From the IMG/VR virus record IMGVR_UViG_3300014834_000354, positions 37,254 through 101,253 of that record: 64,000 bases of DNA; one strand, 5' to 3'. Shown one piece after another: positions 4,543 to 53,610 of this stretch. Numbering within the stretch: position 1 is the stretch's first letter; each line of letters starts with the position of its first letter. Position numbers and translations under genes: made by a program. The notes under the pieces are model-generated. The model saw only the letters and a list, made by a program, of their open reading frames with translations. It made no database searches and was not told the DNA's origin. Source of the DNA: a virus.

Positions 4543-5793
4543 TTAAAAAACGTCAATTCCGCCGTCTTTATTATTCTCAGCAAGCTGAGTGCCTTGTGAT
4601 TCATATTCTTTAGCCATCATTTTCCAGAGTTCAATGAATGCTTTGCTGAGATCATCATCGAGAATTGATAAACTATCACGTAAAGCATTTATCGGTTTAG
4701 ATCCAACCGCGCTTTTAACATTGTTATTTGAGAATGTTTTGGCTACTGTTAAAATTTTTCTGGTTGAAATTATGTCATTAACGGCGCCGGCTTCATATGA
4801 TTTTTTAACTTGTTTATGCCAAGCAGCTAAATGATTTACGATATCCTCTGACAGTTCAAAGCCAGAACTCGTGATAATTTCAATTAATTCACTTTCTGTA
4901 GGCGATTCAAATGGGATTGCAATTTCAAACCTGTCAAGCAGCGCGCTGTCAAGTAATTGTGTGTTATATTTTCCGGTTAAATCGCCTTTGCCACGTGAAT
5001 TGCCTGTTGCGAATACACAGAAGCCCGGTTTAGGATAAACCATTTTATTTAACTTTTTAATCAAGTAGCCGCGATGTTCGAGCACTGGAAATAATTCAGT
5101 AGCAACTTGAGGATTGATTCGGTCCAATTCATCTAAAAGCAGAATGGCGCCTAATTCCATAGCCAAAACCGCTGGACCCTTGTTATAAACCATTGTTCCA
5201 TTTACGAGCCGGAGCCCACCGAATAAATCGTCAACTTCGGTGAAATACGAAATTGGAACTCGAATTACAACTCTGCCAGCCTGTTTAGCTGCAGACAAAA
5301 CTGAAGTAGTTTTTCCGAGACCTGTTTCACCATAAATGTAAACGTTTACTGGATTTTTTACTTTCAGCTGTCGCTGTACATCAGCAAACGAAGATGTTTT
5401 AACGTATGATGTTAGAGCCGGATCATTTGCGGCATTAATTGATTCAATTGATAATTCAATTTCACCGGTCTGCTCGGATTGGAAAATATCATTTTCTCTT
5501 TTCATCATCATTTTCTCTTGTGTTGGTTTATTAACAGCGACTTCTATTTTTAAGTTTTTTAAAATGCTCACAGCCTTTTCTACATTTAATGTTACTGGCC
5601 TTTTTGTCACTACCGCATCAGATAAATTATCTGATATGAATTTTATCGAGTGCGAAATTATTGAGCTGGGTGCTCCAGCCTTTTTTAAAGAAAAGATTAG
5701 ATCAGATCTTTCTATTTCGCAACCAAGAAATGGGTTTAACTCGTCAATAAGATATAAACGCATTTGTTCATCAGATAATAACCGTTCGGCCAT
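4543..5793 (-). CDS. MoxR/CobS-like AAA+ ATPase
   Basis: Walker A GETGLGKT, Walker B LLLDELD, ATGN and LLDRF. Confidence 0.88.
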   Translation of the reverse strand: MAERLLSDEQMRLYLIDELNPFLGCEIERSDLIFSLKKAGAPSSIISHSIKFISDNLSDAVVTKRPVTLNVEKAVSILKNLKIEVAVNKPTQEKMMMKRENDIFQSEQTGEIELSIESINAANDPALTSYVKTSSFADVQRQLKVKNPVNVYIYGETGLGKTTSVLSAAKQAGRVVIRVPISYFTEVDDLFGGLRLVNGTMVYNKGPAVLAMELGAILLLDELDRINPQVATELFPVLEHRGYLIKKLNKMVYPKPGFCVFATGNSRGKGDLTGKYNTQLLDSALLDRFEIAIPFESPTESELIEIITSSGFELSEDIVNHLAAWHKQVKKSYEAGAVNDIISTRKILTVAKTFSNNNVKSAVGSKPINALRDSLSILDDDLSKAFIELWKMMAKEYESQGTQLAENNKDGGIDVF

Positions 5794-35185: not shown

Positions 35186-35374
35186 TTAATTCTTATTAAT
35201 GATCTTCATTAAAGATTCTAATTCAGTCGCGGCTTCTTCAAGAAGATCTGCCATGCGATCTGGCTTGCCTTCCTGCACGCTTTTACGTGTGCTGATCTGT
35301 CTACGTATTTCTGCACGTTTTCGCAGACGATAAATTAAACTCTGCTGTTCATATGGCAAATGACTTTCGTCCAT
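35186..35374 (-). CDS. small phage protein
   Basis: AGGA RBS; RLRKRAEIRRQI...ADLLEEAA. Confidence 0.7.
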   Translation of the reverse strand: MDESHLPYEQQSLIYRLRKRAEIRRQISTRKSVQEGKPDRMADLLEEAATELESLMKIINKN

Positions 35375-35383
35375 ACTGTTTCC

Positions 35384-36061
35384 TTAGTCAATATACATTT
35401 GCAGATGGTCACCAGTAAATTTACGACCATCCGAAATTTCCATAACCATATCTGCGATTGTCTTCTCGGAGACATGATACCCTTTCTGTTTGTACTTAAA
35501 CATGCGATTGATTGAGGCCACAGGGAATGTTATTTTATTCACGTACAATCTTTTCAGCTTAACTGATTTAATCATTCTTTTTGCAATATCTACGCTGACG
35601 CCATCATACGCAGCTTGGCACGCCGTAAAATCAAAACTATCAATCAATTCAATACTATCCTTGTAATATTTTTTGGCTATACATTGAATTTTTAGATCAC
35701 GTTTTTTATACGTGAATAGCTCTCCCTTTGGACACTCAAATACACACCTAAAGCCATCTTCCTTCAATTTCTCATTCACGTGCCATAATTTTTCTTTCGT
35801 GTTAAAAAATAAATCAAAATCAGAAATTTTTTCAGTATGATGAATTAACGTACGCAGTGCTCCACCGGCCAACCAGACCTGGTTTTGTTCAAGATATGGT
35901 TTTACTACTTCTAATCTAGAAGTTCTCCATTGATGGAGATTTTCTGCAGGAATATGATACCAACGATTTACACAAAAATCACGATCATATGGCTCAGGTT
36001 CTGCTTGATAATCCAAATCATCGAGATCATCAAGTAAAATTTGTAATTTATTGACATCCAT
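35384..36061 (-). CDS. nucleotidyltransferase (CCA/poly(A) polymerase head-like)
   Basis: LAGGALR, DFDLFF and FDFT motifs. Confidence 0.8.
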   Translation of the reverse strand: MDVNKLQILLDDLDDLDYQAEPEPYDRDFCVNRWYHIPAENLHQWRTSRLEVVKPYLEQNQVWLAGGALRTLIHHTEKISDFDLFFNTKEKLWHVNEKLKEDGFRCVFECPKGELFTYKKRDLKIQCIAKKYYKDSIELIDSFDFTACQAAYDGVSVDIAKRMIKSVKLKRLYVNKITFPVASINRMFKYKQKGYHVSEKTIADMVMEISDGRKFTGDHLQMYID

Positions 36062-36085
36062 TTTGATTTACCATTAAGTAATAGA

Positions 36086-36307
36086 TTACATTTCCAAATT
36101 AAACATTTGAGATAAATGCTTAGCTAAATTGATTCTATCTTGAATTACGTCTGTAGATGCAATTGGACATTTTGCTATTTCTTCCATACAATCTAAAATA
36201 ATCAATTTAGCAAATTTAATATGATCAAAATAGTTGGGTGAAATTTTTCCATTCACCTCAACCATTTCAATTGAAAAACTCACTAATTGACTGATCCTAT
36301 CATTCAT
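36086..36307 (-). CDS. MNERIKEL/FAELIxxEC paralogue family protein
   Basis: MNDRISQL...KFAKLIILDC...MFNLE. Confidence 0.7.
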   Translation of the reverse strand: MNDRISQLVSFSIEMVEVNGKISPNYFDHIKFAKLIILDCMEEIAKCPIASTDVIQDRINLAKHLSQMFNLEM

Positions 36308-36474
36308 ACAATTTCTATAATCAGATTTGGATTACGCTTTTGTCTTTCTTTCCAATATGGAATAGCCCAAGCAAGATTGGTTTCAATAGCGAGATATGTC
36401 GGTGGTCTGTAATACGGTGTCATTCTGGACACCTTTGGAACATATCTTTTATCATACACTCTAAGATGACTCAT
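36304..36474 (-). CDS. small early protein (56 aa, not in ORF track)
   Basis: MSHLRVYDKRYVPK...; ATGA overlap with the next gene; directly after a promoter. Confidence 0.6.
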   Translation of the reverse strand: MSHLRVYDKRYVPKVSRMTPYYRPPTYLAIETNLAWAIPYWKERQKRNPNLIIEIV

Positions 36475-36509
36475 GGTGTCTTAACCTATAGATTGAATAG
36501 ACAATAGAT

Positions 36510-36539
36510 ATATTACATTGATTTGGCAGAAATGTAAAC
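36510..36539 (-). promoter_or_regulatory. early promoter GTTTACA-N17-TAATAT
   Basis: Consensus; shares 19 bp with the promoter at 37188-37217. Confidence 0.75.
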
Positions 36540-36547
36540 AACTTTAG

Positions 36548-36563
36548 GCGATTAATTAATCGC
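36548..36563. repeat. perfect 16-bp palindrome GCGATTAATTAATCGC
   Basis: Seen directly. Confidence 0.9.
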
Positions 36564-36564
36564 A

Positions 36565-37181
36565 ACATGGCAAAACTTTGAGAATGTTCATGTAAAAATG
36601 AGATCATCTGTCTACAGACAATCTAAAAAGAATCTCGTCTTTCCGAGCGTCATGATAATGGCGTGCTATTACGCCAAAGAGCTATCGGTCCTTTTTGCCA
36701 CCCGGCCACGCAACCTTTTTTCCGTTCTCGCTTCGCTTCTCAATGCAGTTACAAACTGGCTACCTGCACTGTTCTTCACCATCGAGTCTGGCCCTGCTTC
36801 CAGTTCCCTTTCGGGTCTGTGGGATTCATCAGGGTGAATTCCCCCACGGTCACATCCGCTAGTCACTCACTCATTAAAGCTGGCTGCTACTAGGCCAACT
36901 ACCACTATCATGGATGTAGGCTAGACTTACCCTGACCATTTCTGGACTGGCCGTAACCAGTGGGGAATTCCATAGCCTACATTCACTATAGTCCTGCTTT
37001 TGCAGGGTGTTAGCTTCGTATTTACTACCACTATCATGGATGTAGGCTAGACTTACCCTGACCATTTCTGGACTGGCCGTAACCAGTGGGGAATTCCATA
37101 GCCTACATTCACTATAGTCCTGCTTTTGCAGGGTGTTAGCTTCGTATTTACTACCTTTAACCTGCCAATCTGTTCAACGAT
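36565..37181 (-). ncRNA. putative large structured non-coding RNA (~600 nt), family unassigned
   Basis: Own early promoter; no credible ORF; GC-richer than flanks; many helices with GAAA/UACG tetraloops in the minus sense; 3' end approximate. Confidence 0.65.
36898..37155. repeat. exact 126-bp tandem duplication bounded by ACTACC microhomology
   Basis: 36898-37023 identical to 37024-37149; ACTACC at 36898, 37024 and 37150. Confidence 0.95.
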
Positions 37182-37187
37182 AGGTAT

Positions 37188-37217
37188 ATCTTAAACTAGT
37201 TTATGAGAAATGTAAAC
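37188..37217 (-). promoter_or_regulatory. early promoter GTTTACA-N17-TAAGAT driving the putative ncRNA
   Basis: Consensus with no RBS or credible ORF downstream. Confidence 0.75.
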
Positions 37218-37250
37218 AACTTTATGCTAGATTCCGTCGCGTGATTAGTG

Positions 37251-37538
37251 TTATTCCACGTCAATGCGTCTAATGACATATAGTTCCTCGCCGATTGAGA
37301 CATCACGTTCTACATAAACGCAATCATACCCATACTCATAGTCTTGTCCAGTATAATAGCCAATATTGACAATTTCAAATTCGTGTGCTGATAACGCTTC
37401 AGATAATTCAGATATTGATTCAGTGACTTGATTATCATCTTTTGGAATTAACGCCGCAATTCTTTTAAGGGTTTGCAGTGTGTTGCTTGCTGCTAAGGAT
37501 AATTTTAAGAAGGCTGGATCTATTTCTGTAGTCATCAT
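37251..37538 (-). CDS. hypothetical protein
   Basis: AGGA RBS. Confidence 0.65.
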   Translation of the reverse strand: MMTTEIDPAFLKLSLAASNTLQTLKRIAALIPKDDNQVTESISELSEALSAHEFEIVNIGYYTGQDYEYGYDCVYVERDVSIGEELYVIRRIDVE

Positions 37539-37545
37539 TTATCCT

Positions 37546-37944
37546 TCATTTTTCTAACAGATCTGGCACATTTGGAAAAATTCCCATAATTTTTTCAATT
37601 TCACAACATAAATTTTGACATACCGCAATCGGGTCAAGTTTATCTAAATTGAATCCGTAGAGATCATTTTCACACAACACTGCGTTTTCGCCCTTACGAG
37701 CTTCCTCATAAAACGGCAACATGTTAACACCGTCGATGGTTTGGCCGCCTGTTGATAGAAGTACTGCTCGAACAAAACAATCACGTAGGTCACGAAATGT
37801 TATGCCCTTGATTTCTGTTGCTCCCCGTTTACCAGTGCTCGTGTGAGGTTGTCCGTCATACGGGCGATCTCTTTTCATGTTATGATCGTGCCAACCAAGA
37901 TTATGGCCAATTTGATCAAATAGCCGTTCATTATCTGTATTCAT
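37546..37944 (-). CDS. hypothetical protein
   Basis: ORF in the early region. Confidence 0.7.
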   Translation of the reverse strand: MNTDNERLFDQIGHNLGWHDHNMKRDRPYDGQPHTSTGKRGATEIKGITFRDLRDCFVRAVLLSTGGQTIDGVNMLPFYEEARKGENAVLCENDLYGFNLDKLDPIAVCQNLCCEIEKIMGIFPNVPDLLEK

Positions 37945-37973
37945 GATATTTTAGATTGAGAATTTCAAAATAG

Positions 37974-38216
37974 TTAAATTGAAAACCGTTTCCTGATTTT
38001 AGAGATGCAGCGATCAACTACAGCCACAGCACCATCATTCACGCCAAATTCTTCAATTCCGATAGAAGCGCATTCGGCCAGACATTCATAAGCAATCATT
38101 TGTGCAAAAGAATCAAGTTGCTGTGGCGTAAATTGCAATTTATTTTGGTCGGATTCTGCATAATCTGCGCCAACGCTGATTGCTGTTTCTAAATTTTTTC
38201 TATAAATCATGGCCAT
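37974..38216 (-). CDS. FAELIxxEC paralogue family protein
   Basis: SFAQMIAYEC...IRKRFSI. Confidence 0.65.
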   Translation of the reverse strand: MAMIYRKNLETAISVGADYAESDQNKLQFTPQQLDSFAQMIAYECLAECASIGIEEFGVNDGAVAVVDRCISKIRKRFSI

Positions 38217-38239
38217 AATTATTCTCTATCAAATTTGGT

Positions 38240-38434
38240 TTAGGTTCTCAACCAAGCGTCAACGTCGCTTTCGCTATCTAACAGAAGATTTTCTTGCTGC
38301 ATTTCAATCATGCATTTTTTACACACAACCTGATACTTTACTGCTTTTAGAAAATCTCTCGATTCAGATTTTACCCTTACTTCGTATGAATCAATAAATT
38401 TATCAACAACATGTCCGCAGCTTAGAACTACCAT
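38240..38434 (-). CDS. small putative Zn-binding protein
   Basis: CGH...CKKC; GGAG RBS. Confidence 0.6.
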   Translation of the reverse strand: MVVLSCGHVVDKFIDSYEVRVKSESRDFLKAVKYQVVCKKCMIEMQQENLLLDSESDVDAWLRT

Positions 38435-38720
38435 TTTATTCTCCGATCAATAGTGAGAACAATGTGTGTAATAACTGACTGGCCCCTAGGATAGAGACCA
38501 CTATTAGCAATATCATAAAAATAACAACAGCTATTTTCTCAACCACATCAGAAATCATTTTACGATAACCCTCATTTTGCAAAATTATCTTATGTGATAG
38601 TTTCAAGATAAAACATTAAGCTTATATAAAAAATAAGCAAGTAATGCTAATGTTGCTACAATGGTGGTCATTAGGTAAGAAGACTTTTTCATGATGTTGA
38701 ATCCATTTAAGTTAGTAAGC

Positions 38721-42249: not shown

Positions 42250-42449
42250 AATCCATCAAACACGATTGTGGTATCGCCATCATCTACAAGTTCTAGCTTT
42301 CCGGCCAGGGGTTTGACGATGTCTGTCAGTTGTTCTATTGTATCAAATTCCACGATAGGATGTTCAACTTTATGATGGCTATAGTTGCCATGATCATCAT
42401 AGACCGGCACCCGCCATCTTCCGATATCACGTTTTATGAACTGCGGCAT
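42228..42449 (-). CDS. hypothetical protein
   Basis: Abuts the upstream stop. Confidence 0.6.
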   Translation of the reverse strand: MPQFIKRDIGRWRVPVYDDHGNYSHHKVEHPIVEFDTIEQLTDIVKPLAGKLELVDDGDTTIVFDGLCIGWIK

Positions 42450-42656
42450 TCAATTTGCCCCAAAGTGCCATTTGATTTTTTCAATCACTGAAGCCTTATC
42501 TTCCTTACTCAGCCAATAGAGGTCAATGTTTTCGCATTCTTTCGCGATCAACTTAGCAAAATCCATGAGTTCAAACTCATAAAATTGATAAACTCCAAGG
42601 CTCCGTTTATGAGTGCCGCCAGCTTGTTCAGCTAGTTCTATGATTCGGTTGTCCAT
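42450..42656 (-). CDS. MNERIKEL/FAELIxxEC paralogue family protein
   Basis: MDNRIIELAEQAG...DFAKLIAKEC...IKWHFGA. Confidence 0.8.
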   Translation of the reverse strand: MDNRIIELAEQAGGTHKRSLGVYQFYEFELMDFAKLIAKECENIDLYWLSKEDKASVIEKIKWHFGAN

Positions 42657-42790
42657 TTTATTTCTCCGTGTATGCTCTTATTAATTCGAGGGTTGCATGA
42701 TAAAAAACAAATAGCAGCGTTATTGGAAATAATACTATTGCTAACACTGTCATTAGGTGTAATTTTAAATTTCGAAAATTCATAGTAGTT

Positions 42791-43024
42791 TCAACTCCAG
42801 TGTCTGATTATTCCAAGAATATTAACGCAGAAAAAATATATGTTTGTCCAAAGCATAGTTCTGTTAACGTCAGATTTGTATAATAGATATGCGCCAGTTA
42901 GAGAGGATATTGTAAACAGAAAATAGCCATACAACTCATATTGTAAATTGAGTGCGATTAATAAACTCGCTACTACTGAAAATGAAAACGTGATGACACC
43001 CAGAATATTGTCTAATTTCATCAA
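42791..43024 (-). CDS. small three-TM membrane protein
   Basis: Three hydrophobic segments. Confidence 0.65.
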   Translation of the reverse strand: MMKLDNILGVITFSFSVVASLLIALNLQYELYGYFLFTISSLTGAYLLYKSDVNRTMLWTNIYFFCVNILGIIRHWS

Positions 43025-51892: not shown

Positions 51893-51994
51893 GATTTAAT
51901 CCCCTAATTATTGGAAATTACTTATTTTATTAAAATAATAAAAGTACGCTTTATTTATTTTTAATTAATAAGAAAATTTTTGATGTTAATTATA

Positions 51995-52177
51995 CTATTG
52001 AATAGATTTTAATGTCTTTGATAGCACAAATTGATCACACAACGATTTTGGTTCATCGTGCATAATTGAACACCCGTTTGTCTGCTGATATGTGCAGTCG
52101 CCGCAGGCTTCAGGATCATGCGGTAAGCTGTCCATGCTTGGAGCATTTCGCATGTCAATGAGAATACGTTCTAGCAT
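51995..52177 (-). CDS. small Cys-rich protein
   Basis: CGDC...C...C. Confidence 0.5.
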   Translation of the reverse strand: MLERILIDMRNAPSMDSLPHDPEACGDCTYQQTNGCSIMHDEPKSLCDQFVLSKTLKSIQ

Positions 52178-52199
52178 AATTTGTCATAACGTCGATAAG

Positions 52200-52430
52200 T
52201 TAATTTGATTTAATTCGCCTAAAAAATCTATATACTTCCATTTTTCCGGTCTTTCGATTTTTAACATACATTGGAAATCCAAACGTTTGGATTATTAAAA
52301 ATATTATTAAAAATACGAGAGATATCGCTGAATATATGATGAAAAATATGGTCAGCATCAGCGATAAAACCGATATCACTGATATTATTCCAAAAACTCC
52401 ACGGCTGATGCTGTCAAGAAATTCTATCAT
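52200..52430 (-). CDS. small membrane protein
   Basis: Long hydrophobic stretch. Confidence 0.55.
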   Translation of the reverse strand: MIEFLDSISRGVFGIISVISVLSLMLTIFFIIYSAISLVFLIIFLIIQTFGFPMYVKNRKTGKMEVYRFFRRIKSN

Positions 52431-52591
52431 ATATTCAGGGCTTATTTTTAAATTTTACAAAATCAACAATAACACAAATTATTCCACGAAATATTAAACA
52501 AACAGCGTTTGAGAGTATAAGGAAAAATGGAATCATAATTAAAATTAAAACAACTGCGGAAATACATTTGGCAATCAACATCAGATCCATG

Positions 52592-52792
52592 TTAAGCCCC
52601 TTTATTGTTTTTCCACTTTCCCTTGAAAACTAATTCAACATATTTGTGTGTATCAGGGTGAGCGTTTTCATCCAAAACTCGCTCACCTTTCATTGAGGCA
52701 TATTTATGTAAAAAATCTAACTGTTGTTTTAAAAATTCATTTTCAGCAGGTTCACCATTTAACTCTTCATAAAAGTGTGCGAAAGTTTTCAT
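52592..52792 (-). CDS. hypothetical protein
   Basis: N-terminus MKTFAHFYEE. Confidence 0.6.
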   Translation of the reverse strand: MKTFAHFYEELNGEPAENEFLKQQLDFLHKYASMKGERVLDENAHPDTHKYVELVFKGKWKNNKGA

Positions 52793-52803
52793 GATGACCC
52801 CAC

Positions 52804-53028
52804 TTACATATTTTGCAACACCTTTTTCGCGTCAGGGAAATCAAACATTTCCTTGGTGTCTTCATCAATAGCCTCAACAATCATCAAGTTGTAAAGTGTT
52901 TCACTTTCCTTCTTCATCGCTGGACTAAGAGAAGCTTGCCATTTTTTGACCTGGCTGTAGCTTTTGCATTCCCACATTTTGGTGAGGATGTATGCTTGCA
53001 CATCATTCTTAAGGCCTTCGATCTTCAT
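52804..53028 (-). CDS. hypothetical protein
   Basis: ATGA overlap, AGGA RBS. Confidence 0.7.
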   Translation of the reverse strand: MKIEGLKNDVQAYILTKMWECKSYSQVKKWQASLSPAMKKESETLYNLMIVEAIDEDTKEMFDFPDAKKVLQNM

Positions 53029-53579: not shown

Positions 53580-53610
53580 ATTATACACTATAGATTAGTG
53601 ACTTGTAAAC
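53580..53610 (-). promoter_or_regulatory. early promoter GTTTACA-N18-TATAAT
   Basis: Consensus with 18-nt spacer. Confidence 0.65.

Follow-up and report, generated by a model that had tools for sequence, protein, structure and literature searches.

A probable early non-coding RNA unit with a tandemly duplicated folded module in a giant freshwater phage

Few early-acting non-coding RNAs are known from phages, and most were found through conservation; they include decoys, antitoxin mimics, anti-CRISPR RNAs and leaders. Pseudo-ToxI of phage phiTE is an antitoxin mimic that serves in the evasion of type III toxin-antitoxin systems. It is a non-coding tandem repeat RNA whose 36-nt units match the host antitoxin, and its copy number is altered by recombination. 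The RNase III hairpins of T7 early mRNA and the put-type leaders of HK022 place a long irregular helix just 3' of an early promoter and 5' of early genes. GOLLD (RF01998) and ROOL (RF03087) are gene-free, GC-enriched units of about 0.5 kb in phages and prophages that contain hairpins with stable tetraloops, and both families show wide conservation and covariation. In T4-like phages, PeSL motifs mediate a promoter-based exchange of cassettes. These cassettes are indels in the early hyperplastic region with near-identical early promoters at their borders, and their cargo is usually small ORFs (Arbiol et al. 2010, PMC2839356; Comeau et al. 2014, PMC4122927).

The element described here belongs to no described family, yet it is of a familiar sort, a phage-encoded non-coding RNA unit. 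The window analyzed is a 64-kb part of a 101-kb IMG/VR virus contig with an estimated completeness of 28%. The contig carries a T4-type set of replication genes, including the topoisomerase II large subunit and a split B-family polymerase, and the nearest isolate by topoisomerase II is Ralstonia phage RsoM2USA (344 kb), at 49% identity. The source phage is an uncultured freshwater giant myovirus, and the element lies in its early hyperplastic region. The host is likely a freshwater betaproteobacterium. Almost all genes of the window are on the minus strand, and those that surround the non-coding unit are small early genes of unknown function. The features of the locus are these.

36540-37973, minus strand: cassette of 1.4 kb without a counterpart in the closest relative (L012), made up of a 132-aa gene, a 95-aa ORFan gene and the non-coding unit.
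37188-37217, minus strand: early promoter P1 (GTTTACA, a 17-nt spacer, TAAGAT), with a putative transcription start near 37181.
37156-37181, minus strand: short 5' leader ahead of the repeat, delimited from the sequence; in metatranscriptome run X15 it lies within a low-depth contig (37117-37993, depth 6.4).
37024-37155, minus strand: module copy 1, whose edges are the 6-nt microhomology GGTAGT (Tandem Repeats Finder and alignment).
36898-37029, minus strand: module copy 2, in which a small AAAA hairpin is followed by a 20-bp helix that has 2 mismatches and is topped by a three-way junction whose loops are UACG and GAAA.
36681-36897, minus strand: GC-rich 3' core, with GC up to 0.54, several short hairpins and no period-3 signal.
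36595-36680, minus strand: hairpins of the 3' end, one at 36660-36675, a mini hairpin with a U-run at 36625-36647 and a 10-bp hairpin with a U-run at 36601-36624.
36510-36563, minus strand: AT-rich palindrome at 36548-36563, then P2 (36510-36539), the early promoter of the 56-aa gene.

The stretch probably makes a non-coding RNA. Our preferred reading, to which we assign a rough probability of 0.45, is that of an accessory transcription unit, early and non-coding. Its RNA would act in trans, and the folded module would be the working part, perhaps as a protein-binding decoy with a valency set by copy number. Host RNA polymerase would begin transcription at P1, near 37181, and would stop leakily at the pair of hairpins with U-runs at 36595-36647. 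The resulting RNA would stay untranslated and measure about 590 nt, or about 460 nt with a single module copy. Acting in trans, it may be a decoy or sponge in which each module binds a protein factor of the host or of a defence, and the number of modules would then set its valency. The sequence-only reading had listed a scaffold, a decoy or a ribozyme as possible roles. The decoy is the one retained here, as a conjecture, and nothing points to a ribozyme.

P1 belongs to a real class of phage early promoters. The motif GTTTACW-N15-19-TANNWT has 10 matches in the window, against 1.2 expected, and 10/10 are on the minus strand. P1 has no RBS and start codon downstream; the other nine lead to a start codon within about 30-50 nt, most of them with a recognizable RBS (the site at 53610 is left aside). 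The earlier description of an early promoter belonging to the element, with neither RBS nor ORF behind it, is thus borne out. The consensus early promoter left aside, at 53580-53610 on the minus strand, is followed by 45 nt without an obvious RBS and start codon.

Downstream of P1 lies a perfect 126-nt tandem duplication (36898-37155; period 126, 2.0 copies and 100% identity by Tandem Repeats Finder), and the two copies in the window are identical. The duplication arose recently, by slippage at the 6-nt microhomology. A contig of DNA run X1 runs directly from 36897 to 37024 and thus represents a one-copy form; the duplication is therefore both recent and polymorphic. One-copy and two-copy forms coexist in river samples, and one copy is dispensable. 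The two forms amount to a natural experiment on dosage and make the unit a concrete target.

The predicted minimum free energy of the module is -43.4 kcal/mol, with z-scores of -3.1 to -4.3 against dinucleotide shuffles, and of -4.5 in the sliding scan. In that scan, of 200 windows over 8 kb, the mean z was -0.12 with a standard deviation of 1.18, and only the repeat windows stood out. The 3' segment (36590-36680) contains three hairpins, two of them followed by U-runs, and has a z-score of -3.5, with 0/200 shuffles as stable. A terminator scan gave weak terminators here, in the same sense as P1; the larger stem has 3 GC pairs. In 120-nt windows the core is no more stable than its shuffles (z +1.3 to -2.1), and the 3' domain at 36650-36897 has z-scores of -0.5 to -1.4. 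The whole element has z-scores of -2.9 (minus strand) and -2.4 (plus strand), and with one copy removed the value weakens to -1.5. The parts of the element that fold beyond chance are the 126-nt module and the terminator segment only. The minus sense has 4 hairpins with GNRA or UNCG caps where 1.3 would be expected (P about 0.04), and the plus sense has 0, which hints at a transcript of the minus-strand sense.

The individual helices listed by the sequence-only reading are present on the minus strand at the positions it gave. They are the perfect 10-bp stem (36973-36982 with 36914-36923), the GAAA hairpin at 36936-36945, the UACG hairpin at 36947-36960, the AAAA hairpin at 36993-37006, the CCC-GAAA-GGG hairpin at 36806-36815 and the GGCGU/ACGCC hairpin at 36660-36675; the promoter-like site at 37188-37217 was also found. 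Its remark that GNRA and UNCG loops occur in the sense of the promoter agrees with the counts above. The elevated GC that it noted is confirmed (0.47-0.54, versus about 0.35 in the flanks), and the element is the top GC island across the whole 101-kb contig. The proposal of a structured RNA of about 600 nt has support in the module and the terminator segment, and not in the GC-rich 3' core. The two ends could pair over 7 bp, as suggested, but the energy model makes no use of this match.

Sequences of this stretch occur in 14 DNA-type and 6 metatranscriptome runs from river and freshwater studies, and 61-83% of the element's words are present in the six metatranscriptome runs. The run data are contigs only, so that depth is one mean per contig and ends are unreadable. 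Three RNA-library contigs with zero differences from the window (36105-36911 in X15, 36279-36884 in X17 and 36506-36927 in X16) cover the 3' half of the element. The mean depth is 143 in X15 and 136 in X17, versus 3-7 for adjacent contigs of the same phage, a more than 20-fold excess that DNA carry-over would not give; X16 has no excess. Because the deep contigs include P2 and the 56-aa gene, the non-coding RNA is not the only possible source of their depth. In X15 the first 65 nt after P1 lie on a shallow contig (depth 6.4), so the abundant species, if there is one, may begin downstream of P1. The ends of the deep contigs, at 36884-36927, coincide with the 3' strand of the 20-bp helix or fall just below it, and a DNA contig continues there; as a weak hint, this could reflect an abundant RNA that starts by processing near the helix. 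Over the repeat interior (36928-37106) none of the three RNA runs has a contig, which may be an effect of the repeat on assembly. Adapter tails at the ends of the X16 contig are a library artefact and not RNA ends.

A promoter, the lack of translation signals, terminator-like hairpins and presence in RNA libraries together suggest an independent transcription unit, with the ends proposed above. The earlier claim of an abundant early non-coding RNA therefore stands in part: RNA-library presence is seen in six runs, and abundance does not follow, since the deep contigs also hold the next promoter and gene.

The same contigs bear on a rather unlikely alternative, a cis-acting leader. Transcripts from P1 would run on past the weak terminators and enter the 56-aa and 73-aa genes, and the helix of the module would be a processing or stabilizing element, as at the T7 RNase III sites, or an antitermination element. 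The RNA-library contigs span the 3' core, the terminator-like hairpins, P2 and the 56-aa gene, and that of X15 reaches nearly to the end of the 73-aa gene. That the deep contigs stop at 36884-36927, by the 20-bp helix, while a DNA contig continues is a weak hint in the same direction, and the terminators are weak, with 3 GC pairs in the larger stem. Against this, a contig that spans two features is not evidence of a single transcript, and processing sites cannot be read from contigs. The downstream genes are already served by P2, a consensus early promoter, and in the closest relative they manage without such a leader. The arrangement is like that of the T7 hairpins and the HK022 put leaders, a long irregular helix between an early promoter and early genes, but no match to them in sequence or model was found.

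The relative that allows this comparison is L012. Among topoisomerase II-related loci in the viral and metagenome collections it is the one close relative that reaches the site, with a topoisomerase 96% identical; two contigs of the identical strain end before reaching the element. A profile search from the neighboring 225-aa gene retrieved the same relative alone. In L012, the homologs of the 80-aa and 56-aa genes are separated by 110 nt, which contain one early promoter. The segment 36540-37973 is therefore an indel, and the element, which is missing in L012, is accessory.

The cassette resembles those exchanged through PeSL motifs (PMC2839356, PMC4122927). Close relatives differ by it as an indel, it lies in an early hyperplastic region, it is flanked by a common early-promoter motif, with 19 nt in common between P1 and P2, and a palindrome precedes P2. 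The locus differs from the described cassettes in two respects: no stem-loop lies ahead of P1, and 590 nt of the cargo are non-coding. A PeSL origin would account for movement of the cassette, but not for the role of its non-coding cargo.

The 132-aa gene of the cassette (37546-37944; family unknown) has homologs of 50-74% identity in ten loci (L002-L011) on unrelated phage contigs, many of 59-66% GC, which have no common neighbors. L012 itself has a homolog at another location, 5261-5659, adjoining the topoisomerase. This gene looks independently mobile.

By sequence comparison the element is an orphan, with no homolog in the viral, metagenome, prokaryote, GenBank phage or plasmid collections searched. 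Blastn of the element against GenBank phages and plasmids found no match. Neither did blastn and nhmmer against the 10 loci with homologs of the 132-aa gene, which are unrelated high-GC phages without synteny. Exact and transition-tolerant motif patterns were found in none of the viral contigs, metagenome contigs and prokaryote genomes. In the full records of four related IMG/VR phages and RsoM2USA, neither the element as a BLAST query nor R1, a covariance model built on the module, found anything above chance. Complementarity of at least 15 nt to the rest of the 101-kb contig was absent. GGA motifs, a sign of CsrA-type sponges, are not enriched by a rough count made by reading the sequence.

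The search for homologs that the sequence-only reading had proposed thus yielded no homolog and hence no covariation. Its statement that no RNase P, tmRNA or group I/II intron signature is present is upheld by the Rfam covariance models. Rfam 15 at gathering thresholds gave no match in the 64-kb window, and thus none to GOLLD, ROOL, RNase P, tmRNA, group I/II introns, 6S, HEARO or OLE, and ARAGORN found no tRNA or tmRNA. With E up to 10, the region 36400-37350 gave six matches, all at chance level and to small, unrelated families; the best scored 20 bits, where the gathering score is 36. The Infernal search thus produced no strong match, and none to GOLLD or ROOL even at that threshold.

The orphan status and the cassette also bear on a doubtful alternative, in which the stretch is a functionless passenger: a foreign remnant of higher GC that arrived with the cassette when early-promoter motifs recombined, and that is transcribed by virtue of its position. 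The element is absent from L012 and lies in a region of gene shuffling, where the 132-aa gene is placed elsewhere in the relative. The 19 nt common to P1 and P2 are as expected for promoter-mediated exchange of the PeSL type (PMC2839356, PMC4122927), the core folds at chance level, the sequence is an orphan in all collections searched, and the copy-number polymorphism suggests weak constraint. A decayed gene, however, should be marked by a frame with a protein homolog or by a period-3 remnant, and neither is seen. Dense phage genomes seldom retain 600 nt of useless DNA, and a promoter of its own, a terminator pair and sense-specific tetraloops would be odd in a mere remnant.

In a more ambitious form of the preferred reading, the element would found a new class of large early phage RNAs; the three-way-junction module would bind a host or defence protein, and natural populations would tune copy number by duplication. 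We consider this unlikely. GOLLD and ROOL are families with wide conservation and covariation; the present element, which shares with them a gene-free, GC-enriched unit of similar length and hairpins with stable tetraloops, is a singleton with a core that folds at chance level. Without a homolog its helices lack covariation support, and a new class, as the sequence-only reading had suggested, would rest on a single sequence. On the present evidence such a class cannot be claimed.

A ToxI-like array was considered and rejected. The likeness to pseudo-ToxI of phiTE lies in a phage non-coding tandem repeat RNA of variable copy number, but the unit here is 126 nt, in two copies, and no host counterpart was found. 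Pfam revealed no ToxN-like gene near the unit, and neither of the two downstream proteins, of 56 and 73 aa, belongs to a Pfam or PHROG family.

Improbable, too, is an element that acts as DNA, with the 20-bp near-perfect inverted repeat of each 126-bp unit, behind a promoter, serving as an origin or a recombination element. T4-type origins pair a promoter with a downstream element, and by analogy P1 and the repeat might be arranged in the same way. The module folds with equal stability on both strands, so folding energy cannot tell an RNA from a DNA inverted repeat. The GNRA and UNCG loops, however, occur in a single sense, and the GC-rich stretch would not be easily unwound. The element is missing from L012, and its GC skew is the same as in the flanking genes.

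The remaining alternative concerns translation. The stretch has no coding signal. From 36062 to 37250 there is no ORF of at least 80 aa on either strand, which is the longest such stretch in the window. The period-3 ratio is 0.74-0.76 in the module and core versus 1.6-5.9 in six flanking genes, and GC is flat across codon positions where the flanking genes show the usual position-1 excess. Open frames of 63-79 aa occur in both senses, those of 63-65 aa in the sense strand. None of the internal ORFs matched Pfam, no homolog of the 79-aa antisense ORF was found, and the 65-aa sense ORF matched itself alone among 1.84 billion representatives. The earlier view that no credible gene lies here is in keeping with all of these results. 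That small proteins are encoded, for example by the 65-aa GTG ORF at 36669-36866 or by a 21-aa ORF in each repeat, is very improbable: the sense strand has the open frames of 63-65 aa and a gene caller predicted the 65-aa ORF on a public contig, but an RBS, a period-3 signal, codon-position GC differences, a Pfam match and any homolog other than itself are all absent.

Minor observations were made on the surroundings of the element. The next-longest stretches without an ORF of at least 80 aa are 51893-52812 and 42250-43020, and small genes probably lie there. A long AU-rich hairpin is found at the start of the 73-aa gene (36190-36325, minus strand), with a z-score of -4.0 against shuffles (-5.1 in the sliding scan); it falls within the deep RNA-library contig of X15. 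In DNA run X1, strain differences at 35300-36112 cluster in and just past the 225-aa nucleotidyltransferase-like gene (17 in 703 nt, with up to 10 in 140). Elsewhere this run has 0 differences in 36083-36897 and 4 in 37024-38700, and the pattern at 35300-36112 resembles the mosaic exchange of a single gene.
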